DNA of 64,000 bases from Microgenomates group bacterium (lineage in GTDB: Bacteria > Patescibacteriota > Microgenomatia > UBA1400 > MFAQ01): the NCBI GenBank assembly GCA_049303575.1, contig JBAQNH010000002.1, positions 380,541-444,540 of the forward strand, given 5' to 3'. Every line of letters starts with the position of its first letter. Within the stretch, counting starts at the first letter, position 1. This document shows, piece by piece, positions 4,072 to 62,173 of the stretch. Below the pieces are notes generated by a model. It did not search any database, was not told where the DNA came from, and worked only from the letters and a program-made list of their open reading frames with translations. The translations under genes and the position numbers were made by a program.

Positions 4072-4095
4072 CAATTATGAGGCCGACGTTACAAT
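4068..4095 (+). promoter_or_regulatory. Sigma70-like promoter TTGACA-16 nt-TACAAT upstream of the adhesin gene
   Basis: TTGACA at 4068-4073, a 16-nt spacer, then TACAAT at 4090-4095. It lies about 115 nt upstream of the 4211 ATG. Confidence 0.4.
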
Positions 4096-4163
4096 ACGTC
4101 CTAGAAGGCATTGATTTATAACCTCTATTTGGTCACTTTGGTTATAAGGAGCTAATAGTGAAA

Positions 4164-4185
4164 CCGATCTAAAAAATTAGATCGG
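4164..4185. promoter_or_regulatory. Perfect 9-bp inverted repeat (CCGATCTAA-N4-TTAGATCGG) in the adhesin 5' leader
   Basis: Seen directly in the sequence, ~25 nt upstream of the start codon. It could be an operator or an RNA hairpin. Confidence 0.3.
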
Positions 4186-42604: not shown

Positions 42605-43806
42605 TCACCAAGTTCTTTTTACCCTTAGTAATCCTCGGTATTCTTCTCCAACTTTTTATCTCCATTACTACTTATCATCCGGATCTACGCGCTTTTGTTT
42701 TGGCTTCCAAATTTATTGGTAGGGGAGAAGTCCTCACTTTTTATGACCACGTTGCCAAACTTCCCCAAGGAGATCTGGTTAAAAAAATCTACAACGATGA
42801 TATCTTCATTTATCCACCTCTTGCCTATCTGATTCCATCCGCTTTCCATCTTCCTTTCCTAGGAGCTATGACTAAAGCCGTGGATATTATTACGTTGGAC
42901 GACAACGCTCTTTTCAAAGGCTATTTTGCCTACCTTCCTCTCCTTGTTTTCAAACTTCCCTTCCTCTTTTTTGGTTTTCTTACCCTCATCTATCTGCCCA
43001 AACTTTTCAAGAGCAAAGAAGACGGTCGTTTGGCCCAGCTTATCTGGCTTTTTGCTCCGGTCACCATTCATGTTGCCGCTGGTATTGGCCAGGTGGACAC
43101 AATTCTAACCTTCTTCCTTCTTCTTGCTCTCATTGCTCTTAAAAAAGGCTCATTTGGTTGGGGTTCGGTTTTTGTCGCTCTTTCTGCCCTTATCAAACCC
43201 TTTGGTCTAGCCCTTCTTCCTCTAATTGCTATCAAAGTCTTCAAAGAGAAAGGCTTTAAAAAAGCACTTCTGGCTGTTTTGCCGGGAGTCGCTGTTTGGC
43301 TCGCTTTTATTCTGCCTTACCTAGGCTCTCCCGCTTTTAAGATGTATGCACTTCTGGCCTCTCTAGCCGAAAAGTCAACCTTCGCTGGTATTGCCATTTC
43401 CGGGGGAACAGTCATTCCCTGGCTTTACATTGTCTATATTCTGATTGCCATTTATCTCTACTCCGGCAAACTTAGTCTTATCCACTCCATCGGTTTGACC
43501 ATTCTTTCGACTCTGGCTTTTAATCACTTTCATCCTCAATGGTTCCTTTGGTTTGTGCCCTGGCTTCTCTATTACTCAATTACCTCGGGTAAACACTATC
43601 TTTGGCTCATGCTTATTCTCTTTTGGACGGTGATCTGGCTTTCCTTTGACCCTTCTCAAAGTATTGGTATGTTTCTCTTTCTTAAAGACACCTTCACCCC
43701 AACCACCGTTAATCCAATTCAAAACTCAAGCTTGGTGATTTTTGCTCGCGCCGGTTTAATTGCTTCACTAATATCACTACTTTATGACCGAAAAGACCCA
43801 GACTAA
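42589..43806 (+). CDS. Polytopic membrane protein, putative GT-C glycosyltransferase
   Basis: 405 aa with about 11 TMs. Confidence 0.4.
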   Translation: MVKKIITKFFLPLVILGILLQLFISITTYHPDLRAFVLASKFIGRGEVLTFYDHVAKLPQGDLVKKIYNDDIFIYPPLAYLIPSAFHLPFLGAMTKAVDIITLDDNALFKGYFAYLPLLVFKLPFLFFGFLTLIYLPKLFKSKEDGRLAQLIWLFAPVTIHVAAGIGQVDTILTFFLLLALIALKKGSFGWGSVFVALSALIKPFGLALLPLIAIKVFKEKGFKKALLAVLPGVAVWLAFILPYLGSPAFKMYALLASLAEKSTFAGIAISGGTVIPWLYIVYILIAIYLYSGKLSLIHSIGLTILSTLAFNHFHPQWFLWFVPWLLYYSITSGKHYLWLMLILFWTVIWLSFDPSQSIGMFLFLKDTFTPTTVNPIQNSSLVIFARAGLIASLISLLYDRKDPD

Positions 43807-44929
43807 ACGTCTTTTTTGGATTATCCTCATTTTAGGTCTGGTAATTAGATTGGTCTTAGCCTATTTCCAATATTCCGGAGATATCAAAAATCACTTTGTC
43901 TGGGGAAATGGTTTTTTGGAAAATCCAGTTGATTTTTATTCTCGTCACTTCGCAGGTTACAACGACCCAAATTATCCACCCTTAGCCATCATTTTCTTCG
44001 CAGCCGCCAATCTTCTTCACCAGGCCGTTAGTAGTTTCCTCTTATTACTTAATAGAACTTTCAGTTTCTTTCCTTCATTTATTGTTCCGCTCATTATCCA
44101 CGAAAATACGCGTTTCGCTTTTCTGAAACTCCCTGGGATCATTGCCGACATCTTTACTTTTACGATAATCTACAAGTTTCTTACCAAGCAAAAATCAAAG
44201 AGACCCTTACTCCTCGCCAGTCTTTATCTATTTAATCCTGCCGTTATCTATATTTCTTCAGTTTGGGGACAGATAGAACCCCTCACCAATCTATTTCTGG
44301 TATGGTCCTTATATATTGCCCTGTACTCACCCCTGCGTTATTTTTCAATTCTGGTTTTTGCCCTTGGTGTACTCACAAAACAAACCACCCTTTGGTTTGG
44401 TCCGCTATATTTAATTCTTTGGTTAAAGCAGCTGACGAAGGATGAAATTTTTAGAGGTCTTGTTCTTTCACTCGGAGCCTTTTTTGCCTCCTTCCTTCTT
44501 TTTAGGATTGGACCCAGTTCAGCCATCAGCATATACTTCCAAACACTTTCTGGTTCTTCTACTCTGGTTTCCGACGCCGCTTGGAATATCTGGCACTTTC
44601 TTTTTCCCCCAGGTACCGAAGACGCCATTACCATCAAGGGGATTTCGGTAAGATCATTATCGATCTTTATTCTTTTCTCCTCCCTTTTTTATCTAATCAT
44701 CAAAGAACTCAAAAACTTTTCCATGTCTCGTTTCCTCAACCACCTCTTTATCTGGTCCCTTTTGGTATTTTTTATCCAGACTCGTGTCCACGAACGCCAT
44801 TTGGCTCCGGCCATCCTTTTCTGTCTCCTTACTCCCGGATTATTCTCTCGATACTTATTAGATTTCTTCGTCCTCTCCGCTTATCATATGTATAACCTAT
44901 ACTGGAGTCTGAGACTACCATTTATATGA
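43784..44929 (+). CDS. Polytopic membrane protein, putative GT-C glycosyltransferase
   Basis: 381 aa, multi-TM. Confidence 0.4.
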   Translation: MTEKTQTKRLFWIILILGLVIRLVLAYFQYSGDIKNHFVWGNGFLENPVDFYSRHFAGYNDPNYPPLAIIFFAAANLLHQAVSSFLLLLNRTFSFFPSFIVPLIIHENTRFAFLKLPGIIADIFTFTIIYKFLTKQKSKRPLLLASLYLFNPAVIYISSVWGQIEPLTNLFLVWSLYIALYSPLRYFSILVFALGVLTKQTTLWFGPLYLILWLKQLTKDEIFRGLVLSLGAFFASFLLFRIGPSSAISIYFQTLSGSSTLVSDAAWNIWHFLFPPGTEDAITIKGISVRSLSIFILFSSLFYLIIKELKNFSMSRFLNHLFIWSLLVFFIQTRVHERHLAPAILFCLLTPGLFSRYLLDFFVLSAYHMYNLYWSLRLPFI

Positions 44930-46563
44930 TCAACCTAATTCTTGTCGGTATCTTATCAATCGCGGCGTTTTTCCGTCTATTTAATCTAAGCACACTTCCA
45001 ATCTCTCTTTTTGGCGACGAAATCGATGTCGGTTACCACGCCTGGTCTTTGATTACCACGGGGCGGGATTATATGGGCAATCTTTTGCCGACATATATTC
45101 ACAGCCTCTCTGAGTGGCGTGCACCCCTATTGATGTATATAACTGCTCCCTTTGTCGGAATTCTTGGACCCACCGCTTTTGCTGTCCGTCTTCCAGTAGC
45201 TCTTCTTGGCGTTGCCTCCGTTTATCCTTTATATTTACTGGTCAAACACCTTTCCAAAAACACTACGTTGGCCTTGCTTTCCGCTCTCGTTTTGGCTCTC
45301 ACTCCTTGGCACATTCACTACTCCAGGGCTTCTTTCGAAGTGGTCCCTTTAATTTTCTTGCTTCTCTGGGGCACTTATCTTTTTACTAAAGAAAAATACT
45401 TTGCTAGTCTCATTCCCTTCGTTCTTACTTTCTACACCTACTCAACCGCCAACATCTTTACCCCGTTATTTGTTCTGGGGCTTCTCCTTATTTACCGTCC
45501 CAAATTAAATCTCAAAAAGAACTGGGCTAAATTAATTCTTCCCGTAATCTTAATTCTTCCCATGGCCTACAACGTTTTATTTGGTCAGGCTAGTGGACGC
45601 TTTGGTATTATCAGCGTCTTTAATGATCAAAAAATTATTGACCAACTCATCATCAAAAGAACCGATCCCTGGATAAAAGCCTCACCATTTGAAACAGTCT
45701 TCCATAATAAATATTTTGCTTACGCTACCGCCATTGGTTCAAACTATGTCTCTGCACTTTCTCCCCAGTTCCTTTTCCTCAAAGGCGATCCATTTTTCCG
45801 TCACTCTATAAGTGAACAAGGAGAGCTTCTTTGGATTTTCCTCCCCTTCTTTTTACTCGGTCTTTTTGCTCTTCTTAAAAACATCTCGGAAAAGCAAAAC
45901 AAACTAATTCTTCTTTGGTTGCTTCTCGCCCCTATTCCATCCAGTCTCACCCAGGGTGGGGGAGATCATGCTACCCGTCTCTTCCTTATGGTTCCACCCC
46001 TAGTACTAATTACTGCCATGGGTTTCTGGGAATTTGTTTCCAAAATTAAATTCAAAAAGATTTTTATTCTCATCATTGGTTCTCTCTTGATTCTGGCTTT
46101 TGCCAACTACTTCCATCAATACTCCATTCATTACAAATTCGACTCCGCCAGATTTTGGCAGTATGGTTACGAGAGTATCTTTACCCAATTGAAGGCGGCA
46201 GAAGTTGGCGCCAAAAATGTCTATATCAACAATTCCTACGAACCATCGCTATTAAAATTCGCTTTTTATACCCAGTACCCTCCGAGTAAATTCCAAAAAG
46301 ATTTTCAAGGTGATCAGCCAGAGGCATACGATATTGGCATATTCAAAGGGTTCCGTTTTGGAGAAAACTACTTTTTTGGCCAAGTAGGTAATCTCGATGA
46401 TCTTCAAAAACTTCTTCAACCGGGAGACATCTATCTTGCCGCTCAACTCAAAGAAATTCCCGGGGATTGGGACTGGTCAGTCACAGCTCCTTTTGGATTG
46501 AAAACCGTAGGCTTCACCCGAGATTTACTGGGTCAGCCATTATTTACCATCGTCAAACGTTAA
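44926..46563 (+). CDS. GT-C glycosyltransferase, PMT/ArnT-like paralog 1 of tandem array
   Basis: 'SLFGDEIDVGYHAWSLITTGRDYMGNLLP'. 545 aa. C-terminal 'YG(Y/F)' domain. Confidence 0.65.
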   Translation: MINLILVGILSIAAFFRLFNLSTLPISLFGDEIDVGYHAWSLITTGRDYMGNLLPTYIHSLSEWRAPLLMYITAPFVGILGPTAFAVRLPVALLGVASVYPLYLLVKHLSKNTTLALLSALVLALTPWHIHYSRASFEVVPLIFLLLWGTYLFTKEKYFASLIPFVLTFYTYSTANIFTPLFVLGLLLIYRPKLNLKKNWAKLILPVILILPMAYNVLFGQASGRFGIISVFNDQKIIDQLIIKRTDPWIKASPFETVFHNKYFAYATAIGSNYVSALSPQFLFLKGDPFFRHSISEQGELLWIFLPFFLLGLFALLKNISEKQNKLILLWLLLAPIPSSLTQGGGDHATRLFLMVPPLVLITAMGFWEFVSKIKFKKIFILIIGSLLILAFANYFHQYSIHYKFDSARFWQYGYESIFTQLKAAEVGAKNVYINNSYEPSLLKFAFYTQYPPSKFQKDFQGDQPEAYDIGIFKGFRFGENYFFGQVGNLDDLQKLLQPGDIYLAAQLKEIPGDWDWSVTAPFGLKTVGFTRDLLGQPLFTIVKR

Positions 46564-46572
46564 AAAGGGTAA

Positions 46573-48273
46573 ATGTTCAAAAATAAGTCTCTATTACTTC
46601 TAGTTGCGATTGTTTTTTTGTCCGCGTTTTTCCGTTTGTACCGTCTCGATTTGAATCCTCCCAGTTTATACTCTGACGAGGTTGATATCGGCTATCAAGT
46701 TAAGTCGCTACTTGCGACAGGTAAAGACTACCAAGGGTATATTCTTCCCCTTCAGTTTCACTCTTTCTCGGATGTTCGTACTTCCCTTCCCATCTATGCC
46801 ACTACCTTAGTCTCACTTATTCCCGGAGTGTCTCTCGATCTGGCCATCCGTCTCACTCCGGCTATTTTTTCCCTTCTTTCTCTTATCCTGATCTATTTTT
46901 TAACGAATAATCTGTTTACGTTGTTCAAAATAAAAAAAGAAAATAGTCTTTTGGAACCGGGGATCTGGGCTTCCCTCTCTTTGTCCCTTCTTCCGTGGCA
47001 CTACACCTACTCCCGTATCGGTTTTGAACTCTCGATGCTATTTTTCTTCGTTGTTTTTGGACTATTTTTATACACTCGATTTCTTCAAAACAAAAACCAA
47101 AGATTACTAGTCCTGAGTTTAATCGTTTTATCTTTGGTGCCTATGGTCTACAGTACCGCCAAACTCTCCGTTATTTTTTACCCCTTAATCCTTTTTTTAC
47201 TTCCCGGAGGCTATGAATTTTTCAAAACCAAAAAGAACCGAGTCTATCTGCTAATCCTTTTTATTCCTCTCGGTGTACTTTTCCTCAATGGAGGAGCCAG
47301 TAAACGTTTTAGCGAAATTTCTATTTTTACGGATCCTACTGCCTCAACGGAGATAGATGTCATTCGTCAGGTTGATCTTGGCTCAAACCCACCGATCGGT
47401 TCAGTCCCGGACTTAAACACCAAAATAGTCCATAACAAAATTGTTTTTATTGTAAACACCCTCACCAAAAATCTCATCAACCCCATTTCCGGAGGTTTTC
47501 TCTTTCTCCAGGGAGACGAAAATCAACGCCATGCCGTCACTGGTTGGGGGATGTTGGAAAAATCTCTGATTGTCCCTCTACTTCTCGGTCTTTATTTTCT
47601 CATCTCAAGAAAACATAAAAGATTTCTGGCACTTCTTGCTGTTCTTTGGATTTCCGCTACCACCCCCGCCGCGCTCACTAGAGATGGTTTTAATCACGCC
47701 TCAAGAAACTTCATGATGATTCTTCCTCTTGTCTTGTTGATTTCTACTGGTTTTCACCACCTACTAAAATCTTCTAAATTATTGACTATTCTATTAACTG
47801 TTCTGCTACTTGTAGAATCCGCTCTCTATTTTCATGACTACTGGTATCACTACCAGTACGATTCCCAAAGAGACTGGAACTATGGTCTAAAGCAAGTGAT
47901 TCTCGAAACCAACAAGTATTCTGGACGACCGGTCATTATTACCAGAAACTACGAACCACCACTTATCTATTATCTTTACTATGCAAACTTTCCACCAGCC
48001 AAGTTCCAGGAGATGTATCAAACCAAAACTTTCCTCGAAAAAGTTGATCAAAAACTAAATATCGAAGGAGAGAAACTCACGGGAACAAATGTTTACTTCG
48101 CCTCAATCATCGATAAAGAATTAGCGAATCCGTTTTTAATAAAGAATGGAGTTTATGTTCTAACCCACAACGAGTATCTCGAGACCAAAGAACCAAACCA
48201 TTCCCTGCTTGAGACTGTCAAATTCCCAACCGGCCTTCCTGTTCTTTATATTCTCGATGCAAACAAACTATAA
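46573..48273 (+). CDS. GT-C glycosyltransferase, PMT/ArnT-like paralog 2
   Basis: 'SLYSDEVDIGYQVKSLLATGKDYQG'. 566 aa. Confidence 0.65.
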   Translation: MFKNKSLLLLVAIVFLSAFFRLYRLDLNPPSLYSDEVDIGYQVKSLLATGKDYQGYILPLQFHSFSDVRTSLPIYATTLVSLIPGVSLDLAIRLTPAIFSLLSLILIYFLTNNLFTLFKIKKENSLLEPGIWASLSLSLLPWHYTYSRIGFELSMLFFFVVFGLFLYTRFLQNKNQRLLVLSLIVLSLVPMVYSTAKLSVIFYPLILFLLPGGYEFFKTKKNRVYLLILFIPLGVLFLNGGASKRFSEISIFTDPTASTEIDVIRQVDLGSNPPIGSVPDLNTKIVHNKIVFIVNTLTKNLINPISGGFLFLQGDENQRHAVTGWGMLEKSLIVPLLLGLYFLISRKHKRFLALLAVLWISATTPAALTRDGFNHASRNFMMILPLVLLISTGFHHLLKSSKLLTILLTVLLLVESALYFHDYWYHYQYDSQRDWNYGLKQVILETNKYSGRPVIITRNYEPPLIYYLYYANFPPAKFQEMYQTKTFLEKVDQKLNIEGEKLTGTNVYFASIIDKELANPFLIKNGVYVLTHNEYLETKEPNHSLLETVKFPTGLPVLYILDANKL

Positions 48274-48280
48274 TTAATTT

Positions 48281-49945
48281 ATGAAAAAATCCTTAATCCT
48301 TCTGGGGCTTATTTTCATCACCGGTCTTTTCTTAAGAATTGTTGTTCTCGGCTCTACTCCCTCAGGTTTCACACCAGACGAAGCCAGTCAGGGATACGCT
48401 GCCTACTCTTTACTTCAAACTGGTAAAGATGAATGGGGAATTCCCTGGCCGTTAACCAGTTTCCGTGCTTTCGCCGATTACCGCGCCCCTCTTCAGACAT
48501 ATCTCATGATTCCTTCAGTTGCCGTCTTTGGTCTAAACGAGTTTGCGGTCAGACTACCTTCGGCTATTTTTGGTAGCCTGGCCATTTTACTTTTATATTT
48601 TCTTGCCAAGGCTCTTTTCCCAAAGCAGCCCAAAGTGGCTCTCTTTGCCTCTCTTTTTTTAGCCATTTCTCCGTGGCACCTTCAGTTTTCCCGTATGGCT
48701 CTCGAAGCCAACTACTCTTCTTTCTTCCTCACCGGTGGCCTACTCTTTTTTATTCTCGGTCTCACCAAGCCTAGACTTTTTATTTTGTCGGCTATTTTGT
48801 TTGGCCTGGATCTTTACAGTTATCTTGCCGCTAAGATATTTGTTCCCCTATTTATTCTCGGTTTACTCCTTGTCTACAGAGATAGCTTCCAAAAGATTGC
48901 AATCAAGTATTTATGTCTCTTCCTCGGCCTTCTGGCCCTCTTCGGAGCACCTCTGTATCTCGACTCCTTCTTTGGTCCCGGCAATGTTCGTGGCAAAGAT
49001 CTAATCATCACCAACTTCTCCAAAGAAAATATAAACGAGATTGGCACCATTCAGTATCTTTCTCCTCTCAACAAAATTAACCCTCAAATAAGTAGGCTCT
49101 TTACCAACAAGCTCACTTTTACCATCACTCACTTTTATCAAAACTACCTTAGTTATCTTTCACCTGCTTTTTGGTTTGCCGAAAGCGGTTGGGAAACTAC
49201 CTACGCCATTATTCCGGGCAGAGGATTACTCTACTTCTGGATGATTCCCCTACTTTTTTATGGCATTTACTTCCTTATCAAAAGAAAAGACAAAACCTCG
49301 CTTATTTTTCTTCTCTGGTTGCTACTTGGAATAATTCCCGCCGCTATCACGAAAGAAGGTTATCGTCCGAACAGAGCTGGTTCACTCATGACTCTGTTTG
49401 AGTTAGTATCAGCCTTTGGTTTTGTCGAGTTGCTGCAAAACTTCAGGTTCTTAAACAGAGCTCTCGGTAAAATCATTATTGGTTTCATCGTTCTAATTTC
49501 CTTTGCGTTTTATTTAAACGACTATTTTATTGTCTGGAAAATTAAATATCCCGATGCTATGTCATATGGCTATCGTGAATTGGTTGCCAAAGTAAACCAG
49601 TATCAAAAAGACTACAACAAAGTCGTCATCGATAGGGGAAGCCAGTCTCAAGTATTCTTTGCTTTTTACTCTAAAATGAATCCGGCAGAATATCAAACTT
49701 ACTCCGAAAAATGGTGGCCAATTATTCAAGAAAGAAATCTACTTTTCCTGGACATGATTGATAGCTATACTCTCAAAAATTTTACCTTTAGATCTTTTGA
49801 TGCCTCGGTCGATCTTGTTCCTGGTAATCTGGTAGTTATTCCAGCAGTAAAAATGACTGAGATACTCAAACCAAATATTGTCGATCGGGTAAACTATCCT
49901 GACTATAAACCTGCCTTTTATTTACTTCACTATGTTCAAAAATAA
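48281..49945 (+). CDS. GT-C glycosyltransferase, PMT/ArnT-like paralog 3
   Basis: 'FTPDEASQGYAAYSLLQTGKDEWG'. 554 aa. Confidence 0.65.
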   Translation: MKKSLILLGLIFITGLFLRIVVLGSTPSGFTPDEASQGYAAYSLLQTGKDEWGIPWPLTSFRAFADYRAPLQTYLMIPSVAVFGLNEFAVRLPSAIFGSLAILLLYFLAKALFPKQPKVALFASLFLAISPWHLQFSRMALEANYSSFFLTGGLLFFILGLTKPRLFILSAILFGLDLYSYLAAKIFVPLFILGLLLVYRDSFQKIAIKYLCLFLGLLALFGAPLYLDSFFGPGNVRGKDLIITNFSKENINEIGTIQYLSPLNKINPQISRLFTNKLTFTITHFYQNYLSYLSPAFWFAESGWETTYAIIPGRGLLYFWMIPLLFYGIYFLIKRKDKTSLIFLLWLLLGIIPAAITKEGYRPNRAGSLMTLFELVSAFGFVELLQNFRFLNRALGKIIIGFIVLISFAFYLNDYFIVWKIKYPDAMSYGYRELVAKVNQYQKDYNKVVIDRGSQSQVFFAFYSKMNPAEYQTYSEKWWPIIQERNLLFLDMIDSYTLKNFTFRSFDASVDLVPGNLVVIPAVKMTEILKPNIVDRVNYPDYKPAFYLLHYVQK

Positions 49946-51611
49946 ATCCTTCATCGTCCTACTTCTCCTAACCCTCATTGGAGGTATTCTACGCTTCGCA
50001 TTTTTAGATCAAGCTCCGATTTCTCCCAACTGGGACGAAATCAGTCATGGTTACAACGCTTACTCAATTTTGACCACCGGCAAAGATGAATGGGGTATTA
50101 GTTTCCCCCTTATATTCCGAGCCTTTGGTGACTTCAAACTTCCCGTTTACATTTACCTCACCACCATTCCAGTTGCCATTTTTGGTCTTAGTACATTTGC
50201 CATTCGTTTTATCGGAGCCCTTGCCGGCACCCTCGCCATTCCAGGAATTTTTCTCCTAACCCGTGCCCTTTTCCCCGATAAAGAAATAAAATTAAAAAAA
50301 GTTGTTCTCCCACTTTCATTGATCTCGTCATTTATTCTTGCTTTCATGCCCTGGCATTTTTTCATCTCTCGTCCAGCCTTAGAAGCCAACCTCGCTCTTA
50401 CCTTTATCATTTTTGCGGTCTATTTTCTTCTCAAGGGTTTGGAAAATTCCAAAAATTTCATTCCAGCAGCATTTTTATTCGGTCTTTCCCTACACACCTA
50501 CAACACTGCCCGGGTTTTTGTTCCCACTCTATTACTCGCTTTTGTTTTGGTTTACTGGAAAAAAATAAAACTTAATAAATCGGTTATTTTTTCCTGTATC
50601 CTTATTGGTTTATTCGCTCTTGTTGTTGCCTATCAATTATTTTCTGGTTCCGGTACTGCTCGTTACAGCAAGCTCAATATTATTACCGAATCAACGGCTT
50701 ACACTCTTGGTCAAAAGAGAGTCGAAAGCCAACTCCCTCCCCTTATTGCCAAGTTGGTTTTTAACCGCCCCTTATACTTTGTTGAAACTGTCATCGGTAA
50801 CTACTTCAACTATTTCTCACCCACCTTCTTTAATCAAAGTTGGGGAGCTCAATCCCAATTTGCTATTCCCGGAGTAAATATTGTTGGTCTTCCGGTTCTC
50901 ATCCTTTTCCTCCTCGGACTACTCTACTTCATTCGCCGTCCAGGAGAAAAGTCGCTACAGTTCATTTTTGCCTGGCTCCTCCTTGCCCCTCTAGCTGCCT
51001 CTCTCACTGTCGATCCACCCCAAGCCCTCCGCCCTAATCCCATGATTCCGGCTATTGTTTTATTTGCCGGTTTAGGAGCCATTTTACTTATGGAAAAACT
51101 TTCAGATAGCTTAAAGACCATTGTTTCGCTAATTATTGCTCTCTCCATTCTTCTTAATTTTTCTCTCTATCTAAATAACTACTTCGTCCTCTATCCCAAA
51201 ACCTACTCCGAGTCCTGGCAGTATGGTTATCAAGAGTTGTACCAATATCTAAACAATCAAAAAGATTACCATAAGTTCTTCGTTACCAAACGCTACGGTG
51301 AACCCCATATTTTTTACGCCTTTTATAACAAATTAAAACCAACCATTCTTCAGGATACTTCTCGCTCCAAACGTTTTTACCAGTCCGAGTGGTACTGGAC
51401 GGACAAAATCGATAACTATTATTTTGTCAACGAGTTTGATATTCCCATTACCAAAATAGAGTCCTTAACCTTGGAAAGTGGCGAAGTAGTACCCACCAAA
51501 GACAGTCTTCTGATTACTACCTCGGGACATGTTCCGGTAAATGCCAATGTTTTAAAAACCATTAATTTCCTCGACGGTTCTACCGCCTTTATCATTGCCC
51601 AGATGCCATGA
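49932..51611 (+). CDS. GT-C glycosyltransferase, PMT/ArnT-like paralog 4
   Basis: 'PNWDEISHGYNAYSILTTGKDEWG'. 559 aa. Confidence 0.65.
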   Translation: MFKNKSFIVLLLLTLIGGILRFAFLDQAPISPNWDEISHGYNAYSILTTGKDEWGISFPLIFRAFGDFKLPVYIYLTTIPVAIFGLSTFAIRFIGALAGTLAIPGIFLLTRALFPDKEIKLKKVVLPLSLISSFILAFMPWHFFISRPALEANLALTFIIFAVYFLLKGLENSKNFIPAAFLFGLSLHTYNTARVFVPTLLLAFVLVYWKKIKLNKSVIFSCILIGLFALVVAYQLFSGSGTARYSKLNIITESTAYTLGQKRVESQLPPLIAKLVFNRPLYFVETVIGNYFNYFSPTFFNQSWGAQSQFAIPGVNIVGLPVLILFLLGLLYFIRRPGEKSLQFIFAWLLLAPLAASLTVDPPQALRPNPMIPAIVLFAGLGAILLMEKLSDSLKTIVSLIIALSILLNFSLYLNNYFVLYPKTYSESWQYGYQELYQYLNNQKDYHKFFVTKRYGEPHIFYAFYNKLKPTILQDTSRSKRFYQSEWYWTDKIDNYYFVNEFDIPITKIESLTLESGEVVPTKDSLLITTSGHVPVNANVLKTINFLDGSTAFIIAQMP

Positions 51612-53257
51612 AAAAATACTGGATATTAATTCTGGCTCTCCTTATTGGCTCTTTCTTAAGACTCTATCAGCTAGGTGTTATTCCCAATGCCCTTACCTGG
51701 GACGAAGCAGCTCTAGGTTACAATGCCTTTTCAATTTTGAAAACTGGTAAGGATGAATACGGCACAGTCCTACCCATAATTTTCAAAAGCTTCGGCGATT
51801 TTAAGCCAGGTCTCTATGTTTATCTTGCTGTTCCCTTTGTTGCTATTTTTGGTCTTACCGAGTTTGCGGTCAGACTCCCCGGTGCTCTTTTTGGCATCCT
51901 CGCCATTTTTGGAGTTTTCTTGTTAACCAGAGAAATTTTTTGGGAAGAAAGAAAAGCTCGTCTTATTGCCTCATTTGCTGCTCTTGGTCTTGCCATTATG
52001 CCACTTCATATCCATTTTTCTCGGGGCGCTTGGGAAACCAACGTCTTTTCTACGCTCCTTCTTTTTTCAGTTTATTTTCTAGTCAAATTTGTACATACTG
52101 GACGTTTCTTAAAATGGTCTCTTATTTTTGGTCTGCTCACCTTTGTCACCTATCAAGCCGCCAAGATACTCACGCCCTTGATCATTGGTTTGACCATTCT
52201 CGTTTTCTGGAAAAGTTTTATTACCCATCTAAAAACTCATCTTCGTAAACCGTTAAACTTCGGCTTGGTAAGTTTGGCTGTAGCCATTGTTCTCTATTTG
52301 TTTATTGGATCAACGACGGGTGAAATGGGTAATCGTCTCAAACGACTCAGTATCTTTGGTTATCGTCCTGAAATTACAGAACAAACAAAAAAAATCGACG
52401 ATAATAACAATCTTTCTCTTTCCCTTTTTCATGGTCAGTCTCAGTTAACCACAAGACTAATTGCCGGCCGCTATCTCAAACACCTTTCTCCTAAAGTTCT
52501 TTTTTATGAGGGCACTACTGTTGTTGAAAGGGGACACTTCCCGGGACTTGGTGCTCTCCAGCCATTTGATTTTATTTGGTTAGGTCTAGGTTTTATTTTC
52601 TTGATAAAAATTAAAAATACCAAAGTTATCGCTTTTGTTTTAGGTCTTTTGTTTCTTTCTCCCTTACCTGGCTCACTTACCATTTCGGATTACTCCACCG
52701 TGAGGAGTTTGTTTATGACCATTCCTTTGGCTATACTCCTTGGCCTGGGCTACTCTTATACCTTCACCAAACTTAAATATATTTTTTATCCGCTTCTCGG
52801 ATTAACCATATTAATTTTTGTCTATTTTGTCGACTTACTGTTTATTCACGCCAACTATACCTATGCTCGCGAATTCCAATATGGCTACCGCGAAGCAATA
52901 AAATTCGCTAGCCGTTTTCCGGAAAGCAAAGTCGTTATGACCGATGTCTTTGGTCAACCCTACATCTTTTATCTTTTCTACACCCGTTTTGATCCATCCT
53001 CCTATCAAAAAATCCACAACTTCGAAAGTGGTGGTTTTGATGTCGGTAAGGTCAGTAAATTGGATCGAGTGGAATTCCACCAATTTAGTGTCGGTGAATT
53101 TGCCTCTCAATCAAACACTGTTTTTCTTGGTACTGTAGGCAATGTTCCTGAAGACTATAAATTTGACGCTCCCGAAATCGAAACACATGAAGATGTTTTT
53201 TACCCAGATGGAGAATTCGCCTTTAGATTGATTAAAACCAAAACCAGTGAAAAATAA
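51608..53257 (+). CDS. GT-C glycosyltransferase, PMT/ArnT-like paralog 5
   Basis: 'LTWDEAALGYNAFSILKTGKDEYG'. 549 aa. Confidence 0.65.
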   Translation: MKKYWILILALLIGSFLRLYQLGVIPNALTWDEAALGYNAFSILKTGKDEYGTVLPIIFKSFGDFKPGLYVYLAVPFVAIFGLTEFAVRLPGALFGILAIFGVFLLTREIFWEERKARLIASFAALGLAIMPLHIHFSRGAWETNVFSTLLLFSVYFLVKFVHTGRFLKWSLIFGLLTFVTYQAAKILTPLIIGLTILVFWKSFITHLKTHLRKPLNFGLVSLAVAIVLYLFIGSTTGEMGNRLKRLSIFGYRPEITEQTKKIDDNNNLSLSLFHGQSQLTTRLIAGRYLKHLSPKVLFYEGTTVVERGHFPGLGALQPFDFIWLGLGFIFLIKIKNTKVIAFVLGLLFLSPLPGSLTISDYSTVRSLFMTIPLAILLGLGYSYTFTKLKYIFYPLLGLTILIFVYFVDLLFIHANYTYAREFQYGYREAIKFASRFPESKVVMTDVFGQPYIFYLFYTRFDPSSYQKIHNFESGGFDVGKVSKLDRVEFHQFSVGEFASQSNTVFLGTVGNVPEDYKFDAPEIETHEDVFYPDGEFAFRLIKTKTSEK

Positions 53258-54884
53258 ATTAATTATCATCATTCTCCTCCTCGCTACCATTCTGAGATTG
53301 GTTTTGCTGGACAAATTCCCGGCAGGTTTAAACTCCGATGAAGCCGCTATTGGTTACAACGCTTGGTCTCTACTGGAGACGGAGAAAGATGAGCATGGCG
53401 TGACTTGGCCTTTAGTTTTTCGCTCCTTTGATGACTACAAACCTCCCGTGTATTTTTACCTGGTTCTTCCTTTTATTAAAATCCTAGGATTAAATATCTG
53501 GGCGGTTAGATTACCCTCAGCCCTTCTGGGTATCGCCTCAGTCTACCTTCTCTACCTGCTTGCCAAAAGACTTTTCTCGGAAAAAGAATATCAGTATCTT
53601 CCCGCTCTTTCCGCTTTTTTCCTAGCCATCTCTCCCTGGCATCTCCATTTTTCCCGCGGCGGTTGGGAAGTAAATGCCGCCACTTTCTTTATCCTTCTCA
53701 CTCTTCTCTATCTCCACAAAAGTTTGGAAAATACCAAGTTCCTCTTTGTCTTTGGCCTTAGTGCCGTCCTTTCTCTTTACACCTATCACTCTGCCCGTAT
53801 TATCACCCCACTTCTTATAGCAACTTTTGCTATCGTTTATTTTAATAAAGTAAAGATTTTCTTTGAAAAGAAAAATCTCAAACTTACTCTTACCGCCCTG
53901 GTCTTTTCTGTCATCTTGGCTCTCCCTATTGTTTTTCAACTACTCTCTAAATCCGGTCAGTCACGTTTCTCCGGAGTCTCCATTTTTGCTGATGCTGGTC
54001 CTATCTGGCAGGCGACCAACTACCGAATTGAACACAACTCCACCAATCCCTTAGTTGATGTTTTTCATAATCGATACTTTACTTACGGCCTAAGATTCGT
54101 TCAAAACTATCTTAGTCACTACTCTCCCGATTTTCTTTTTATTGATGGTGACACTATTGCCAGAAGCCGCGTTCCCGAAATGGGGCAGACCTACCTCTAC
54201 CTGTTACCCTTCTTGTTTCTGGGAATTCTTTCCTTGTTAAAGTTTGACTCTGACGGCAAAAAGATAACCCTCGCCTGGTTTTTAATTGCTCCAATTGCCG
54301 CCGCCCTTACCTATCAGTCTCCTCACGCTCTCAGATCTCAAAACATGGTTATTCCCTTGACTCTAATCTCGGCTATTGGTGTTCTTACCTTTTTCCGTTT
54401 CATAAAAAATAATTTAAAAAAATATTTCTCTTTAATTCTTCTGGTTCTGGTTACGGTTCAACTATATAGCTTTGCCCGTTATCTACATATGTACTATGTT
54501 CACTATCCCAAAGAGCTCTCCTATGCTTGGCAGTATGGCTTTGATCAAATTGCAAAATACACTAAAGCAAACTACGACCAGTATGATCACATCATCATTA
54601 CCGATCGTTATGACCAACCATATATTCTGACCGCCTTCTTTACTTTCTACGACCCGGCCGTTCTTCAAACAGAGCTGGTTATGTCCACACCCGATCAATA
54701 TGGTTTTGCCACCGGTAGGAAGTTTGGTAAATACGAGTTTAGATCCATTAAATATGATGAAGACAAAAACCTCCCCAACACCCTCCTTATCTCTTCCGAA
54801 GAAAAAATAGATGACACCAAGGTAATAAACACGGTAAAATCTCCTTCAGGGGAAACCATGTTCAAGTTTATCTCTACCAAATGA
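53247..54884 (+). CDS. GT-C glycosyltransferase, PMT/ArnT-like paralog 6
   Basis: 'LNSDEAAIGYNAWSLLETEKDEHG'. 545 aa. Confidence 0.65.
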   Translation: MKNKLIIIILLLATILRLVLLDKFPAGLNSDEAAIGYNAWSLLETEKDEHGVTWPLVFRSFDDYKPPVYFYLVLPFIKILGLNIWAVRLPSALLGIASVYLLYLLAKRLFSEKEYQYLPALSAFFLAISPWHLHFSRGGWEVNAATFFILLTLLYLHKSLENTKFLFVFGLSAVLSLYTYHSARIITPLLIATFAIVYFNKVKIFFEKKNLKLTLTALVFSVILALPIVFQLLSKSGQSRFSGVSIFADAGPIWQATNYRIEHNSTNPLVDVFHNRYFTYGLRFVQNYLSHYSPDFLFIDGDTIARSRVPEMGQTYLYLLPFLFLGILSLLKFDSDGKKITLAWFLIAPIAAALTYQSPHALRSQNMVIPLTLISAIGVLTFFRFIKNNLKKYFSLILLVLVTVQLYSFARYLHMYYVHYPKELSYAWQYGFDQIAKYTKANYDQYDHIIITDRYDQPYILTAFFTFYDPAVLQTELVMSTPDQYGFATGRKFGKYEFRSIKYDEDKNLPNTLLISSEEKIDDTKVINTVKSPSGETMFKFISTK

Positions 54885-55759
54885 AAAACAAACGTCAAAC
54901 AATCTCCGTCGTTCTGGCAACCTTCAACGAGGAGGCAAACATCAAGGCTTGCTTGGACTCGGTCAAAGACTGGGTCGATGAAATGATCATTGTCGATGAA
55001 CAAAGTACCGACAAAACAAAAGAGATCGCCGAAAAGTTAGGAGCCAAAGTTTACTCAGAACCTCACGAGCAAATCTTTCATATCACCAAAAACAAAGCAA
55101 TAAACAAAGCCAAGTCCGCCTGGATTCTTCAGTTGGATGCCGACGAAAGAATTACTCCCGAAATGAAAAAGGAAATCATCGGCATTCTGGAAGGGGAGTA
55201 CTTCGGCTACGACAGTTGGATCAGTCCGGTAAGAAAATCCATCAATAAAATTGTGAAGATTTTTCCCGAGCCAAACAAACTCGATAAACCTGCCTTTGCC
55301 TACTGGCTTCCTCGCAAGAATTTTTTCCTGACAAGATACTTAAAAAATACTGGTCAGTATCCCGATCCCGTCATCCGTCTATTCCAAAAAGGCAAAGCCA
55401 TTCTTCCTGCCAAAGACGTCCATGAGCAGATGAAAGTGGATGGAGTTGTTGGTTGGCTCAAAACCGATCTCGACCACTACGCCACTCCGGACTTCAGCAG
55501 ATATTTATTAAGAGAAAATCGCTACTCCAGTCTGCAAGCTAGATTTTATAAAGAAGCCGGTCTTAAAGTAAATTTCTTTAGAACAATCAATTTCTTATTC
55601 TTTAAACCACTTGGTACCTTCCTCGATCTCTATATCCGTCGCCGTGGTTTTTTGGATGGTTTCCCCGGATTTGTTTTTTCTCTCTACTCCGGACTTCACC
55701 ATGCCTTTTCCTACATGAAGCTCTGGGAACTGTACAAAAACGAAACCTATGGAAAATAA
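54881..55759 (+). CDS. GT2 glycosyltransferase
   Basis: 'ISVVLATFNEEANIKACL...IIVDEQSTDKTKEIA'. Confidence 0.65.
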   Translation: MKNKRQTISVVLATFNEEANIKACLDSVKDWVDEMIIVDEQSTDKTKEIAEKLGAKVYSEPHEQIFHITKNKAINKAKSAWILQLDADERITPEMKKEIIGILEGEYFGYDSWISPVRKSINKIVKIFPEPNKLDKPAFAYWLPRKNFFLTRYLKNTGQYPDPVIRLFQKGKAILPAKDVHEQMKVDGVVGWLKTDLDHYATPDFSRYLLRENRYSSLQARFYKEAGLKVNFFRTINFLFFKPLGTFLDLYIRRRGFLDGFPGFVFSLYSGLHHAFSYMKLWELYKNETYGK

Positions 55760-56768
55760 AATAAAAGTTTTCCTGGACAGCGGCACTCACTCTCAAGGGA
55801 GAGGTGTCGGCTTCTATGCTGAAAACCTCGCCAAAGGACTAGAGAAACTTTCCGATGTTACTCTTACCGACGCCAACCCCGATCTTATTCACTATCCCTT
55901 CTTTGATCTTTTTTACCCCACTCTTCCCTACAAAAAATTAAAACCAACCATAGTTACTATCCACGACGTCACCCCCTTGGTCATGTCAGACAGATATCCC
56001 AAGGGAATTAAAGGAACAATAAACTTCTTTCGTCAATGGCTCTCCCTTCAGTCTGTCTCGGCCATTATCACCGACTCGGAAAACTCCAAAACAGACATCG
56101 AAAAATATCTCTTTGTTCCCAAAGAAAAAATCTTCGTCACTCCTCTTGCTATCGACCCAGTCTATGGCAAGGAAATCTCGGAAGAAAAGCTCCTAGAAGT
56201 CAAGAAACGACTTAATCTTCCCGATAAATTCATTCTTACTGTCGCAGGTGGTCCAAATCCAAATAAAAATCTTCCCTCCCTTGCTGAGGTCACCGATCGT
56301 CTGGACATTCCCTTGGTTGTTGTCGGCAAAGGCATGCTCCAAGAAGTCAGAGAACCGGTGCATCCTGAGCTTATCGATATGATTCGTTTGAAGGTCTACA
56401 AGCATCTTATTCTCCCCGGCTTCGTTAGTAATGATGATCTAAACGCTCTCTATCGTTTGGCTACCCTGTACGTCCAACCAAGCCTCTATGAAGGTTTTGG
56501 ATTACCCCTCTTAGAAGCTATGACTGCCGGTTGTTTGGTCGCAAGTTCCAACTCCAGTAGTCTTCCCGAGATCTATCATGAGGAAGCCATCACCTTTAAT
56601 CCCCGAAAACTTACCTCAATGGAAAAAGCTATCAAAAAAGCCCTTGCTCTCTCACCAAAAGCAAAACAAAAGCAGATTGAGCTCGCAAAAACTAAAGCCG
56701 CCACCTTCTCTTGGCCCAAGACCGCCAAAGCCACTTTCGAAGTCTACAAGCAAGTAACATGTCGCTAA
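55749..56768 (+). CDS. GT4 glycosyltransferase
   Basis: 'EGFGLPLLEAMTAGCLVASSNSSSLPEI'. Confidence 0.7.
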   Translation: MENKIKVFLDSGTHSQGRGVGFYAENLAKGLEKLSDVTLTDANPDLIHYPFFDLFYPTLPYKKLKPTIVTIHDVTPLVMSDRYPKGIKGTINFFRQWLSLQSVSAIITDSENSKTDIEKYLFVPKEKIFVTPLAIDPVYGKEISEEKLLEVKKRLNLPDKFILTVAGGPNPNKNLPSLAEVTDRLDIPLVVVGKGMLQEVREPVHPELIDMIRLKVYKHLILPGFVSNDDLNALYRLATLYVQPSLYEGFGLPLLEAMTAGCLVASSNSSSLPEIYHEEAITFNPRKLTSMEKAIKKALALSPKAKQKQIELAKTKAATFSWPKTAKATFEVYKQVTCR

Positions 56769-57892: not shown

Positions 57893-57907
57893 TGTAGAAT
57901 ATTTATA

Positions 57908-57996
57908 GCTGTCAAGAGAACCACTAAAAAGGTCGGCAACCGAGCCTCCAAAAGGTCGCGGTGCCAAAATGACAAGCCTCTGTTATTAATTAGAGG
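57908..57996 (+). ncRNA. Candidate SAM-responsive riboswitch (S-box-like motifs) plus SD-sequestering hairpin in the metK leader
   Basis: P1-like helix GCUGUCA/UGACAAGC enclosing AGAGA, GGCAACC and GGUGCCAA. A CCUCU-N10-AGAGG hairpin follows, containing the metK Shine-Dalgarno sequence. Confidence 0.4.
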
Positions 57997-58005
57997 AAAA
58001 ACAAA

Positions 58006-62171: not shown

Positions 62172-62173
62172 AT

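Follow-up and report, generated by a model that had tools for sequence, protein, structure and literature searches.

Several GT-C glycosyltransferase paralogs, some encoded in tandem, are found in mycobacteria and corynebacteria (embC-embA-embB, AftA-D, MptA/B, and PimE), where they carry out distinct extracytoplasmic steps on one envelope glycan with a polyprenyl-phosphate-sugar donor. Mycobacterial LM, LAM, and AG are assembled by such a series of GT-C enzymes (PMC3485146, PMC3044687), and EmbA and EmbB form a heterodimer (PDB 7bvf). Three-component extracytoplasmic glycosylation has also been described (PMC11127046). Gtr-type systems, GacI/GacK/GacL of Streptococcus pyogenes, and GT136 combine a GT2 polyprenyl-phosphate-sugar synthase, a flippase (GtrA/Wzx), and a GT-C enzyme; these systems use one GT-C per decoration, in a polysaccharide locus with rhamnose genes nearby (10.1101/180810; PMC11127046). 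The GT39 protein O-mannosyltransferases (PMTs: Pmt1/2/4, POMT1/2, and actinobacterial Pmt) require a MIR domain (PMC12705809, PMC7759382), and PMT dimers have been described (PMC12705809). The eukaryotic, ER-lumenal ALG mannosyl- and glucosyltransferases (ALG3/9/12 and ALG6/8/10) are a paralogous GT-C series that extends a flipped lipid-linked oligosaccharide begun by cytoplasmic GTs; each member contributes one defined sugar, taken from a polyprenyl-phosphate-sugar. Oligosaccharyltransferases (OSTs: STT3/AglB/PglB, GT66) carry a WWDYG motif after the last TM helix.

Layout and evolution of the array

The analyzed DNA (the window) is a stretch of 64,000 nucleotides from a Microgenomates group bacterium. 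The initial annotation had described six consecutive same-strand genes of 545–566 aa that abut or overlap by a few bp, and six intact, abutting or overlapping ORFs were called on the + strand at exactly these coordinates (44926–54884). They are G1 (44926–46563, 545 aa), G2 (46573–48273, 566 aa), G3 (48281–49945, 554 aa; the modelled protein), G4 (49932–51611, 559 aa), G5 (51608–53257, 549 aa), and G6 (53247–54884, 545 aa; GTG start), with successive junctions of +9, +7, −14, −4, and −11 nt.

What is new here is the evolutionary picture of the array. G1, G3, G4, G5, and G6 are ancient GT-C paralogs (groups 1, 3, 4, 5, and 6) with one-to-one orthologs, and their order has been kept across Microgenomates. 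Identity was 40–47% within ortholog groups versus 24–33% between groups. In the NJ tree, G3, G4, G5, and G6 were each monophyletic (30/30 bootstraps), with G3 and G4 as sisters in 28/30 and G5 and G6 in 21/30. The gene order G1-G3-G4-G5-G6 was monotonic in 76 of the 80 related loci, which come from Collier-, Woese-, Shapiro-, Blackburn-, and Amesbacteria. G1-type genes occurred in 70/80 of these loci, G4 in 69/80, and G6 in 71/80. Ortholog identity was 58–59% for G1 (related loci L001 and L004), 51–65% for G4, 48–62% for G5, and 55–61% for G6. The density of the array, previously regarded as unusual, is a conserved Microgenomates feature and not exceptional for the lineage.

G2 arose recently from G1, evolves fast, and occupies a slot that elsewhere holds other extra copies or none. 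It nested inside G1 (G1 + G2 clan, 30/30 bootstraps), and its orthologs were found in three close relatives only. The slot between G1 and G3 held one to two extra divergent family members in 25/57 loci, 10 of them on the opposite strand. By identity and tree, the earlier view of the genes as old paralogs rather than recent duplicates stands for the five core groups but not for G2, a recent, lineage-specific G1 offshoot. Both the variable slot and G2 would suit a redundant or diversifying set, in which functionally equivalent copies serve for dosage or let a surface glycan vary antigenically. The core paralogs, however, are one-to-one, in fixed order, and strongly conserved within groups across order-level lineages, contrary to what redundancy or rapid turnover would produce; this explanation is considered very unlikely.

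Motifs, topology, and catalytic residues

The six proteins aligned pairwise over their full length (BLASTP, 26–37% identity, 110–251 bits). Invariant in all of them (G1 numbering) are the D31 E32 pair, G36, Y37, T45, D48, R88, P127, H129, S133, R134, E138, Y413, and G414, within ~30 common invariant residues. The Asp-Glu pair opens the first loop after TM1, which is the most conserved region of the protein. Across 317 sequences of the five core groups, D33, E34, and 30 further positions were ≥ 90% conserved, and these are invariant in all six window proteins, including G2. The motifs named in the initial annotation were all recovered in the alignment of the six, with small deviations in some copies: three have TGRDY, TGKDY, or TEKDE in place of 'TGKDE', G2 and G4 have a degenerate 'FAVRLPSA', and G2 has YGL for 'YG(Y/F)'. 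Residues that discriminate the groups adjoin invariant ones (182 by Y181, 364 by R365). Judged by these residues, all six copies are probably catalytically competent.

Eleven TM helices were taken from the G3 model, and the topology was derived by combining secondary structure with charge bias rather than by using the coordinates of the model. Lys and Arg per residue amounted to 0.29 in the proposed inside loops vs 0.10 in the outside loops (321 sequences). By these positive-inside statistics, loop 1 with its invariant Asp-Glu pair is predicted to face the outside of the cell, as the earlier proposal would require. The C-terminal end is a family-specific alpha/beta domain of ~130 aa, in which a carbohydrate-binding fold was not found.

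The paralogs might also be co-translated parts of an obligate hetero-oligomer, i.e., one multi-subunit GT-C complex on one substrate as in EmbA-EmbB or Pmt1-Pmt2, which would fit either acceptor type. The overlapping or near-abutting genes suggest coupled expression, and the genes are strictly retained together and in order, with G5 next to G6 in 51/51 loci and G4 next to G5 in 42/52. Furthermore, GT-C heterodimers exist and were among the structural matches (PDB 7bvf, EmbA-EmbB; 6p2r, Pmt1-Pmt2). Yet G1 often lies several kb apart from G3–G6 in related loci, and the catalytic residues are complete in every paralog, so that no member resembles a simple scaffold. Such a complex is rated as rather improbable.

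Family assignment

The six proteins are members of a single, distinct subfamily within the class-A GT-C membrane glycosyltransferases. Their proposed place in the PMT/ArnT/STT3 structural class was borne out by Pfam and structure searches, in which the top HMM and structural matches did not fall in a non-glycosyltransferase family. PMT_2 scores were 30.7 bits for G1 (barely over the cut-off), 16.2 bits for G2 (sub-threshold), 40 bits for G4, 32.7 bits for G5, and 42.7 bits for G6. The HMM check thus supported PMT_2 membership but not PMT (PF02366), which was reached marginally by G1 only (24.5 bits, barely over the cut-off). ORFs at 22732, 25503, and 37065 had been listed as further family members, and they do match PMT_2 (37065 slightly below the cut-off), as does the ORF at 27017, which was overlooked (above the cut-off). 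Because these four genes resemble the six over the N-terminal 100–240 residues only, the six are a separate clade and not part of nine equal paralogs. Besides the core paralogs, ~10 further confirmed or suspected GT-C genes lie within ~38 kb.

The array proteins share the loop-1 Asp-Glu pair, the predicted 11-TM N-in/C-out topology, and multiple conserved paralog groups with GT39, but no MIR or other PMT-specific domain was detected in the Pfam search, and the alpha/beta domain stands at the C-terminus instead. The modelled G3 fold was equally close to STT3B, ArnT, Pmt4, and ALG12. On these grounds, the initial identification as PMT/GT39 protein O-mannosyltransferases is not upheld. The array motif 'WQYGY' (aromatic-Tyr-Gly) directly follows the last TM helix, at the position of WWDYG in OSTs, but it is not WWDYG, loop 1 is of the PMT/ArnT type, and no STT3 Pfam match was obtained. 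To the ALG enzymes, which are unclustered, there is no sequence-level relationship; the likeness is one of logic, an analogy and not membership.

ArnT (GT83) is similar in size and likewise carries a soluble domain C-terminal to its last TM helix. It gave the best TM-score (5f15; TMq 0.54, TMt 0.55) and the sole sequence-level match among solved structures (E 0.004), which would suit enzymes that transfer sugars to a membrane lipid head group (lipid A-like or a glycolipid), altering surface charge. However, identity to ArnT is 12–14%, the NCBIfam ArnT equivalog model scored 25 bits against a cut-off of 567, and the C-terminal domains are not detectably similar. The window has no lipid A genes, the surface it encodes is of Gram-positive type (a sortase and its LPATG substrate are present), and five conserved paralogs are hard to square with a single lipid modification. 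Lipid modification of this kind is regarded as highly improbable.

Neighboring genes and donor supply

The array forms the central part of a block of 13 genes (40918–57892), with genes ≤ 9 nt apart or overlapping, all on the + strand. Upstream are two cytoplasmic GT2 genes (Pfam Glycos_transf_2) at 40918–41796 and 41786–42604, with relatives in 45/80 and 52/80 loci. Their top NCBIfam matches were sub-threshold (MftF and EpsD for the first; rhamnosyltransferase TIGR01556 and EpsD for the second). Two Leu/Phe/Ile-rich proteins (405 and 381 aa; 42589–44929) follow, the 40918/41786/42589 junctions overlapping and the gene at 43784 overlapping G1 by 4 nt. No Pfam match was obtained for these two even at E ≤ 5, their orthologs carry weak or faint precomputed GT87 marks, and the 42589 product weakly matched 'cell surface glycopolymer formation protein' in NCBIfam. 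Both are presumed to be membrane proteins and may be small GT-C (GT87-like) enzymes; a 43784-type gene was present in 59/80 related loci. Downstream of G6, a GT2 (54881–55759, 4-nt overlap) and a GT4 (55749–56768, 11-nt overlap with the GT2) were assigned by Pfam. The last block member is a PIG-V-like (Mannosyl_trans2) membrane glycosyltransferase (56711–57892; PF04188 31.2 bits, cut-off 22.4) with relatives in 33/80 loci. G6 was followed by GT2-GT4 in 43 related loci, in 31 of which the PIG-V-like gene came next, and the conserved arrangement in relatives is GT2-GT2-(43784-type)-array-GT2-GT4-PIG-V-like.

The Dpm1-like GT2s reported earlier at 18050, 22019, 24755, and 59131 are real genes (all + strand) that look like polyprenyl-phosphate-sugar synthases, which were their closest NCBIfam matches, far below the cut-offs. 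The GT2 at 59131–59799 (222 aa) matched PpgS best (below cut-off, positions 3–217 of 226). In relatives, the block is immediately followed by a GT2 of this type; in the window, the two are separated by a SAM riboswitch and metK. The GT2 at 18050–19231 is fused to a GtrA/DPMS TM domain (PF00535 93 bits, PF04138 40 bits), and its top NCBIfam matches were PgfS, ArnC, and PpgS (all sub-threshold). These two are candidate polyprenyl-phosphate-sugar makers. The other two, Dpm1/ArnC-like by Pfam and NCBIfam (22019–22735 and 24755–25516), flank the PMT_2 GT-C gene at 22732–24216 and an RNase T-like gene. A Wzx-type MOP flippase is encoded at 28707–30182 (+ strand; Polysacc_synt_3 177 bits), with NCBIfam matches to MOP flippase and 'O-glycosylation flippase', both below cut-off. 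RmlA-like, RmlB, and RmlD-like genes make a dTDP-rhamnose-like pathway the sole nucleotide-sugar pathway in the window, and GDP-mannose pathway genes were absent there, which leaves mannose as the sugar unsupported. The window yielded no initiating phosphoglycosyl transferase, polymerase, or ligase.

Thr/Pro-rich proteins

Composition confirmed the long Thr/Pro-rich stretches noted earlier in ORFs 2066 and 4211, the latter ending in an LPATG sorting signal. These could be acceptors if the array enzymes were protein O-glycosyltransferases, moving sugar from polyprenyl-phosphate-sugar to Ser/Thr in the Thr/Pro-rich linkers of secreted or sortase-anchored proteins with paralog-specific preferences, as in Pmt1/2/4 or TMTC1-4. 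PMT_2 membership, the Asp-Glu motif in the first outward loop, and the flippase's second NCBIfam match are in line with this, as is PgfS, part of a streptococcal adhesin-glycosylation system, as first or second match of three Dpm1-like GT2s. The marginal PF02366 match, the lack of a detected MIR or PMT C-terminal module, the fold equally near STT3B, ArnT, and ALG12, and the missing GDP-mannose genes count against it. The ORFs also lie 36–43 kb from the array, and none of the 84 related loci had a Thr/Pro-rich ORF within 10 kb of it, so the suggested tie between them was not sustained. Protein O-glycosylation appears unlikely, and protein O-mannosylation specifically is not supported.

Proposed role in envelope glycan assembly

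The conserved GT2/GT4 and other GT-C-like neighbors point to glycopolymer assembly over protein modification. We estimate an approximately even chance that the array assembles or decorates an envelope glycan in several steps, operating outside the membrane with polyprenyl-phosphate-sugar donors. Against this stand the lack of an identified initiating transferase, polymerase, or ligase in the window, the sub-threshold synthase matches of the GT2s, the C-terminal domain in which no carbohydrate-binding fold was found, and the presence of Thr/Pro-rich secreted proteins in the window. The cytoplasmic GT2/GT4 enzymes would build a lipid-linked glycan primer, possibly containing rhamnose, for export by the Wzx-type flippase, and the Dpm1/ArnC/GtrB-like GT2s would charge polyprenyl phosphate with single sugars. 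The five core paralogs would work outside the membrane, each attaching its own sugar or making its own linkage as the envelope glycopolymer or lipoglycan grows; the catalytic base would presumably be the loop-1 Asp. The variable slot, here G2, may provide lineage-specific decoration.

The GT2, flippase, and GT-C components resemble the Gtr- and Gac-type systems (the synthase assignment here being sub-threshold), as do the nearby rhamnose genes, but five ancient GT-C paralogs of the same subfamily are kept together here. With the mycobacterial sets, the array shares the partly tandem GT-C paralogs and, as proposed, the division of one envelope glycan into distinct extracytoplasmic steps. The array proteins nevertheless belong to another subfamily (11–14% identity, no Emb/Aft Pfam match) and, at ~550 aa, are much smaller and lack lectin-like C-terminal modules. 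The tandem copies number five to six here, in an uncultivated CPR bacterium, and three in emb.

Layout of the array and its gene block

The array consists of six ORFs on the + strand that encode GT-C glycosyltransferase paralogs, exactly as described in the initial annotation: G1 (44926-46563, 545 aa), G2 (46573-48273, 566 aa), G3 (48281-49945, 554 aa), G4 (49932-51611, 559 aa), G5 (51608-53257, 549 aa), and G6 (53247-54884, 545 aa, GTG start). The junctions between them were, in order, +9, +7, −14, −4, and −11 nt. The six proteins were 26-37% identical when aligned end to end, and all pairs scored 110-251 bits in BLASTP, so their likeness is far beyond chance. Residues D31-E32, G36-Y37, T45, D48, R88, P127, H129, S133-R134, E138, and Y413-G414 (G1 numbering) were common to all six, and the sequence motifs named initially were essentially right, being most degenerate in G2 and G4. 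Since all ORFs were intact and the catalytic residues retained, pseudogenes and degenerate copies were rejected.

The array is the core of a block of 13 genes (40918-57892) that overlapped or were separated by at most 9 nt, and promoter- or terminator-like sites were not enriched among them. The block comprised two GT2 genes, genes for two presumed membrane proteins, G1-G6, and genes for a GT2, a GT4, and a PIG-V-like membrane transferase. The two presumed membrane proteins were rich in Leu, Phe, and Ile and had no Pfam match, and their counterparts in relatives were GT87-like. A SAM-I/IV riboswitch (57904-58012, + strand; 42.1 bits, barely over the gathering score, 41.1) and metK (58006-59109) followed as one unit between the PIG-V-like gene and a PpgS-like GT2 gene at 59131. 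A mobile or phage origin of the block was rejected, given the surrounding housekeeping genes trmD, tsaE, metK, and ftsX and the synteny in relatives.

Family assignment

The Pfam family PMT_2 (PF13231, gathering threshold 26.1 bits) was matched by G1 (30.7 bits), G3 (49.3), G4 (40.0), G5 (32.7), and G6 (42.7), and G2 scored below the threshold (16.2 bits). The features of GT-C class A were all present: multi-pass proteins with a conserved N-terminal module, a long first extracytoplasmic loop, and conserved acidic residue(s) opening that loop. The six proteins belong to the GT-C superfamily and to PMT_2. The likeness of the other GT-C proteins of the window (22732, 25503, 27017, 37065, and others) to the six was confined to the N-terminal 100-240 residues. 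Three of these (22732, 25503, and 37065) had been listed as further members; they are PMT_2-type GT-C proteins, and the resemblance to the six ends with that N-terminal part.

Membership in GT39, the PMT family proposed initially, was not borne out. In the Pfam search, PF02366 (PMT) matched G1 alone and marginally (24.5 bits, cut-off 22.7) and had no match in G2-G6, and neither a MIR (beta-trefoil) domain nor a PMT-type C-terminal transmembrane module was found in any of the six. In the structure model of G3, residues 232-320 were partly short helices and partly unstructured, and the domain at the C-terminus was of alpha/beta type. A luminal MIR domain is a feature of eukaryotic PMTs; bacterial Pmt enzymes, to our knowledge, likewise have none.

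Among solved structures, ArnT was the sole match, a marginal one (E 0.1 with a profile of the six, E 0.004 with a profile of 72 members), and the latter alignment spanned the TM2-TM7 region only. An ArnT-like lipid modification is very unlikely as the role of these enzymes: the ArnT equivalog NF009784 was matched by G3 only, at 25 bits against a cut-off of 567, and the window encodes an envelope of the sortase/LPXTG type. Matches to I-SceI endonuclease in the sequence search of solved structures (E ~0.02) were judged to be due to chance, and the NCBIfam matches (Agl23, ArnT, and the LA_3751 family) were all far below threshold and gave no usable name. Neither the marks of GT66 oligosaccharyltransferases (an STT3 match in Pfam, and WWDYG in the C-terminal domain) nor those of GT53 arabinosyltransferases of the tandem embCAB kind (an Emb-type sequence, and a carbohydrate-binding module at the C-terminus) were found in the six. 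Membership in GT39, GT83, GT66, or GT53 is not supported, and the subfamily is about equally far from STT3, PMT, and ArnT. Public annotation offers no more than 'glycosyltransferase family 39 protein' or 'ArnT-like' for these proteins. An NCBI entry with the very sequence of G3 is titled 'glycosyltransferase family 39 protein [Microgenomates group bacterium]'.

Structure model, topology, and C-terminal domain

G3 was modeled by AlphaFold2 from 72 sequences of the family, and the model was confident (pLDDT 93.1, pTM 0.91). Hydropathy-only prediction of transmembrane segments gave overlapping, unusable segments and was replaced by the model helices and charge-bias statistics; 11 transmembrane segments with the N-terminus inside and the C-terminus outside were assumed, and residues 113-143 were taken as an interfacial segment. 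In 321 family sequences, K+R per residue was 0.29 in the proposed cytoplasmic loops vs 0.10 in the proposed external short loops, a bias that places the first loop (residues 25-69) outside. This 11-segment topology with an external first loop is inferred from secondary structure and charge bias. The loop carries D33 and E34 (G3 numbering), which were invariant in the six and reached at least 90% conservation across 317 sequences; the loop was also the most conserved region (14 of 45 positions at least 80% conserved). The Asp-Glu pair is thus predicted to face outward, as the initial annotation had expected of a GT-C enzyme.

Strict criteria yielded three positions (182, 308, and 364) that discriminate between the ortholog groups, too few for acceptor differences to be inferred; two of them adjoin invariant residues (182 by Y181, 364 by R365) and would fit, if thinly, a shared donor chemistry with differing acceptor pockets. 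One-to-one ortholog groups, together with these few residues beside invariant ones, offer concrete targets for biochemistry.

When 1.84 billion representative proteins were searched with a profile of the C-terminal domain, 1,658 clusters matched. Among the best 150 matches, the domain was located at the C-terminal end of the protein with two exceptions; approximately 70 of these proteins were 500-600 aa long, and most of the shorter ones resembled fragments. The domain is a hallmark of the G1-G6 subfamily, which, with this domain and its distance from STT3, PMT, and ArnT, could add a new specificity class to GT-C enzymes.

Conservation across Microgenomates

Orthologs of G3 were present in many other Microgenomates at 40-77% identity, well above the 26-37% between the paralogs of the window. 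The same array recurred on two related contigs, of which one belongs to Candidatus Collierbacteria GW2011, with genes pairing one-to-one with G1, G3, G4, G5, and G6 at 47-65% identity. A scan with one genome per species returned 382 relatives, and gene order was counted in the best 80 loci, where every ORF of at least 300 aa was typed by its best match. The named lineages among these 80 were Collier-, Woese-, Shapiro-, Blackburn-, Ames-, and Curtissbacteria, beside unnamed Microgenomates/Patescibacteria. The order G1...G3-G4-G5-G6 was kept in 76 of them; G5-G6 were adjacent in 51/51 loci, G4-G5 in 42/52, G3-G4 in 37/60, and G1-G3 in only 18/51.

Mean identity was 40-47% within groups vs 24-33% between them. 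In the neighbor-joining tree, G3, G4, G5, and G6 were each monophyletic (30/30 bootstraps), and the sister pairs G3+G4 (28/30) and G5+G6 (21/30) suggest that neighboring genes arose by tandem duplication. Group identities and tree agree with the initial view of old paralogs, and a recent tandem duplication was rejected. G2 was nested inside G1 (G1+G2 clan, 30/30), and among the best 80 loci it had orthologs in three close relatives only. In 25/57 loci, one or two further divergent members of the family stood in the G1-G3 interval, in some cases on the other strand. From order, identities, tree, and this interval, the array is an ancient five-gene core with a variable slot. Redundancy or antigenic variation among the paralogs would fit the slot only and not the five-gene core, and is very improbable as an explanation of the array.

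Relatives of the neighboring genes recurred as well: the upstream GT2s in 45/80 and 52/80 loci, the gene type of 43784 (one of the two Leu/Phe/Ile-rich proteins directly upstream of G1) in 59/80, and the downstream GT2, GT4, and PIG-V-like genes in 50/80, 45/80, and 33/80. These last three followed G6, in this order, in 31 loci, and the next gene, when visible, encoded a Dpm1/ArnC-like GT2; in the window, the SAM riboswitch and metK occupy that place.

Many species-representative genomes with a Microgenomates-type array bore the MAG titles 'uncultured Gammaproteobacteria', 'uncultured Pseudomonadales', or 'Clostridia bacterium' (loci L006, L009, L013, L016, L019, L021, L022, L028, L030, L032, L033, L036, L037, L039, L040, and others). 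Because array content and order were those of named Shapiro-, Woese-, and Collierbacteria, these titles look like taxonomic mislabels.

Other glycosylation genes of the window

The stretch from 18 to 40 kb, upstream of the block, also encoded three additional Dpm1/ArnC-like GT2s, one of which carried a fused GtrA domain, along with two YfhO-like proteins, four further PMT_2-type GT-C proteins, a Wzx flippase, and other GT2 and GT4 enzymes. The GT2s at 18050, 22019, and 24755 had their best NCBIfam matches to ArnC and PgfS and that at 59131 to PpgS and AglJ; Dol-P-hexose transferase matches of these four short GT2s were weaker. Several of all these alignments were near full length, and every one was far below the cut-offs, so the four are no more than candidates for the polyprenyl-phosphate-sugar synthase of a Gtr/Gac-type three-component system. 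The GtrA_DPMS_TM domain fused to GT2 18050 scored 40 bits (cut-off 26.1), and the Wzx-type flippase gene was located at 28707, so that the flippase component of such a system is present; a functional link of either to the array is inferred.

Altogether, approximately 16 confirmed or suspected GT-C-type membrane transferases were encoded in ~38 kb (18050-57892): G1-G6, the YfhO-like proteins starting at 19209 and 38611, a weak PMT match starting at 20883, the PMT_2 proteins at 22732, 25503, 27017, and 37065, the PIG-V-like protein at 56711, and two proteins with no family match at 42589 and 43784. The proteins at 27017 and 19209 were mutual paralogs (26% identity over full length). An RNase T/DEDD-type exonuclease (24213-24752, + strand; PF00929, 107 bits) lay inside the glycosylation region, between GT-C and GT2 genes that its gene overlapped or nearly abutted. 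A Leu/Phe-rich, probably membrane-embedded protein of 1064 aa (30175-33369, + strand) matched nothing in Pfam or NCBIfam, lenient thresholds included; its relatives lay upstream of the array in 7/80 loci, in the order 30175-33332-34285-35193-35999, and it may represent a further, undescribed family of large envelope-glycan enzymes.

RmlA-like, RmlB, and RmlD-like genes were found at 11.5-14 kb, and no RmlC was recognized in the window. The RmlA-like ORF (11496-12227, + strand) was short, with 243 aa against a model of 286 positions, and below the cut-off. A nucleotide-sugar dehydrogenase ORF (59804-60661, + strand; 285 aa) covered model positions 58-294 of 413. Both may be truncated genes, genes with alternative starts, or reduced CPR versions. 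Neither a GDP-mannose gene nor an initiating phosphoglycosyl transferase was found in the window.

Proposed function

We put it at about an even chance that the five core enzymes (G1 and G3-G6) each carry out one step on a single envelope glycopolymer or lipoglycan, outside the membrane and with polyprenyl-phosphate-sugar donors. By established GT-C biology, the Dpm1/ArnC-like GT2s would make the polyprenyl-phosphate-sugars, from which G1-G6 would take single sugars on the outer side of the membrane. A lipid-linked primer would be started by cytoplasmic GT2/GT4 enzymes and exported by the Wzx-type flippase; each core enzyme would then act at a different step, and the G1-G3 slot would supply lineage-specific additions. 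Extracytoplasmic precedents are GacI/GacL of Streptococcus (10.1101/180810), the three-component systems (PMC11127046), and the mycobacterial assembly of LM, LAM, and AG (PMC3485146, PMC3044687). The paralogs might instead form a hetero-oligomeric complex, a reading compatible with either acceptor type, glycan or protein, and quite improbable in our estimate.

Closest in logic to stepwise glycan assembly by the core enzymes are, in mycobacteria, the tandem Emb paralogs and assembly by GT-C enzymes in series, and elsewhere the ALG series of the ER lumen and three-component glycosylation of the Gtr/Gac type. Enzyme class and pathway type are already known and the general principle is established; new are the distinct subfamily with its own C-terminal domain and the deeply conserved collinear five-paralog array. 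No earlier description of array or subfamily in CPR/Microgenomates was found in the searchable literature, whose coverage mostly excludes subscription journals, so this absence is no proof.

Like other CPR bacteria, Microgenomates have not been cultivated; their genomes are tiny, they probably live attached to other cells, and hardly anything is known about the chemistry of their envelopes. In this genome of ~0.7 Mb (the contig is 704 kb), the 13 glycosylation genes take up ~17 kb, and the five ancient paralogs have kept their order across order-level lineages, which implies that the surface glycan is both indispensable and complex in structure. More tentatively, the core with its conserved GT2, GT4, and GT-C-like neighbors may be a lineage-defining Microgenomates pathway, in which a GT-C subfamily not described before would build a complex envelope glycan or lipoglycan, nearly all of it on the outer side of the membrane. 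Such a pathway would correspond, in these bacteria, to the ALG pathway of the ER lumen and to LAM/arabinogalactan assembly in mycobacteria. Strain-specific surface variation would then come from the variable G1-G3 slot and be relevant to attachment of ultra-small, probably host-dependent cells.

Host surface and Thr/Pro-rich proteins

The window also carries ftsX, tsaE, trmD, metK, and genes for an M23 peptidase, a sortase, and an LPATG-anchored SpaA-type protein, which marks it as CPR chromosomal DNA and the surface as Gram-positive-type. In the initial annotation, the array enzymes were taken to O-mannosylate Thr/Pro-rich secreted proteins. Such proteins are present in the window, and the fold does not tell acceptors apart; against this model, PMT-specific features are missing, nothing indicates mannose as the sugar (its pathway is absent from the window), and no Thr/Pro-rich gene, the 2066 type included, was linked to the array in 84 loci. 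Neither the sugar nor the protein partners named initially were thus supported, and we consider protein O-glycosylation by the array unlikely. Should it be the function after all, CPR bacteria would prove to possess an elaborate system of protein O-glycosylation.

The ORF at 2066-2959 (+ strand, 297 aa) had no family match. Between its hydrophobic N-terminal and C-terminal stretches lay a run of TPT/TPTN repeats of ~60 residues, with 34 S/T/P in 40 aa, and the product is plausibly an O-glycosylated surface protein. A full-length cyclic-di-GMP-II riboswitch (4095-4178, + strand; 67 bits, gathering score 53.5) was located 32 nt upstream of ORF 4211-8827, which encodes a SpaA/prealbumin-fold surface protein of 1538 aa that carries a Thr/Pro-rich linker at the N-terminus and an LPATG sorting signal at the C-terminus. 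Next came a 314-aa ORF without a family match and a sortase gene (9779-10345). The arrangement of the segment 4095-10345 suggests that c-di-GMP controls a sortase-anchored adhesin or pilin in this CPR bacterium. At the other end of the window, the + strand genes lost their strong negative GC skew after ~58 kb, and G+C was 0.31 in 62001-64000 vs ~0.41 in the rest.
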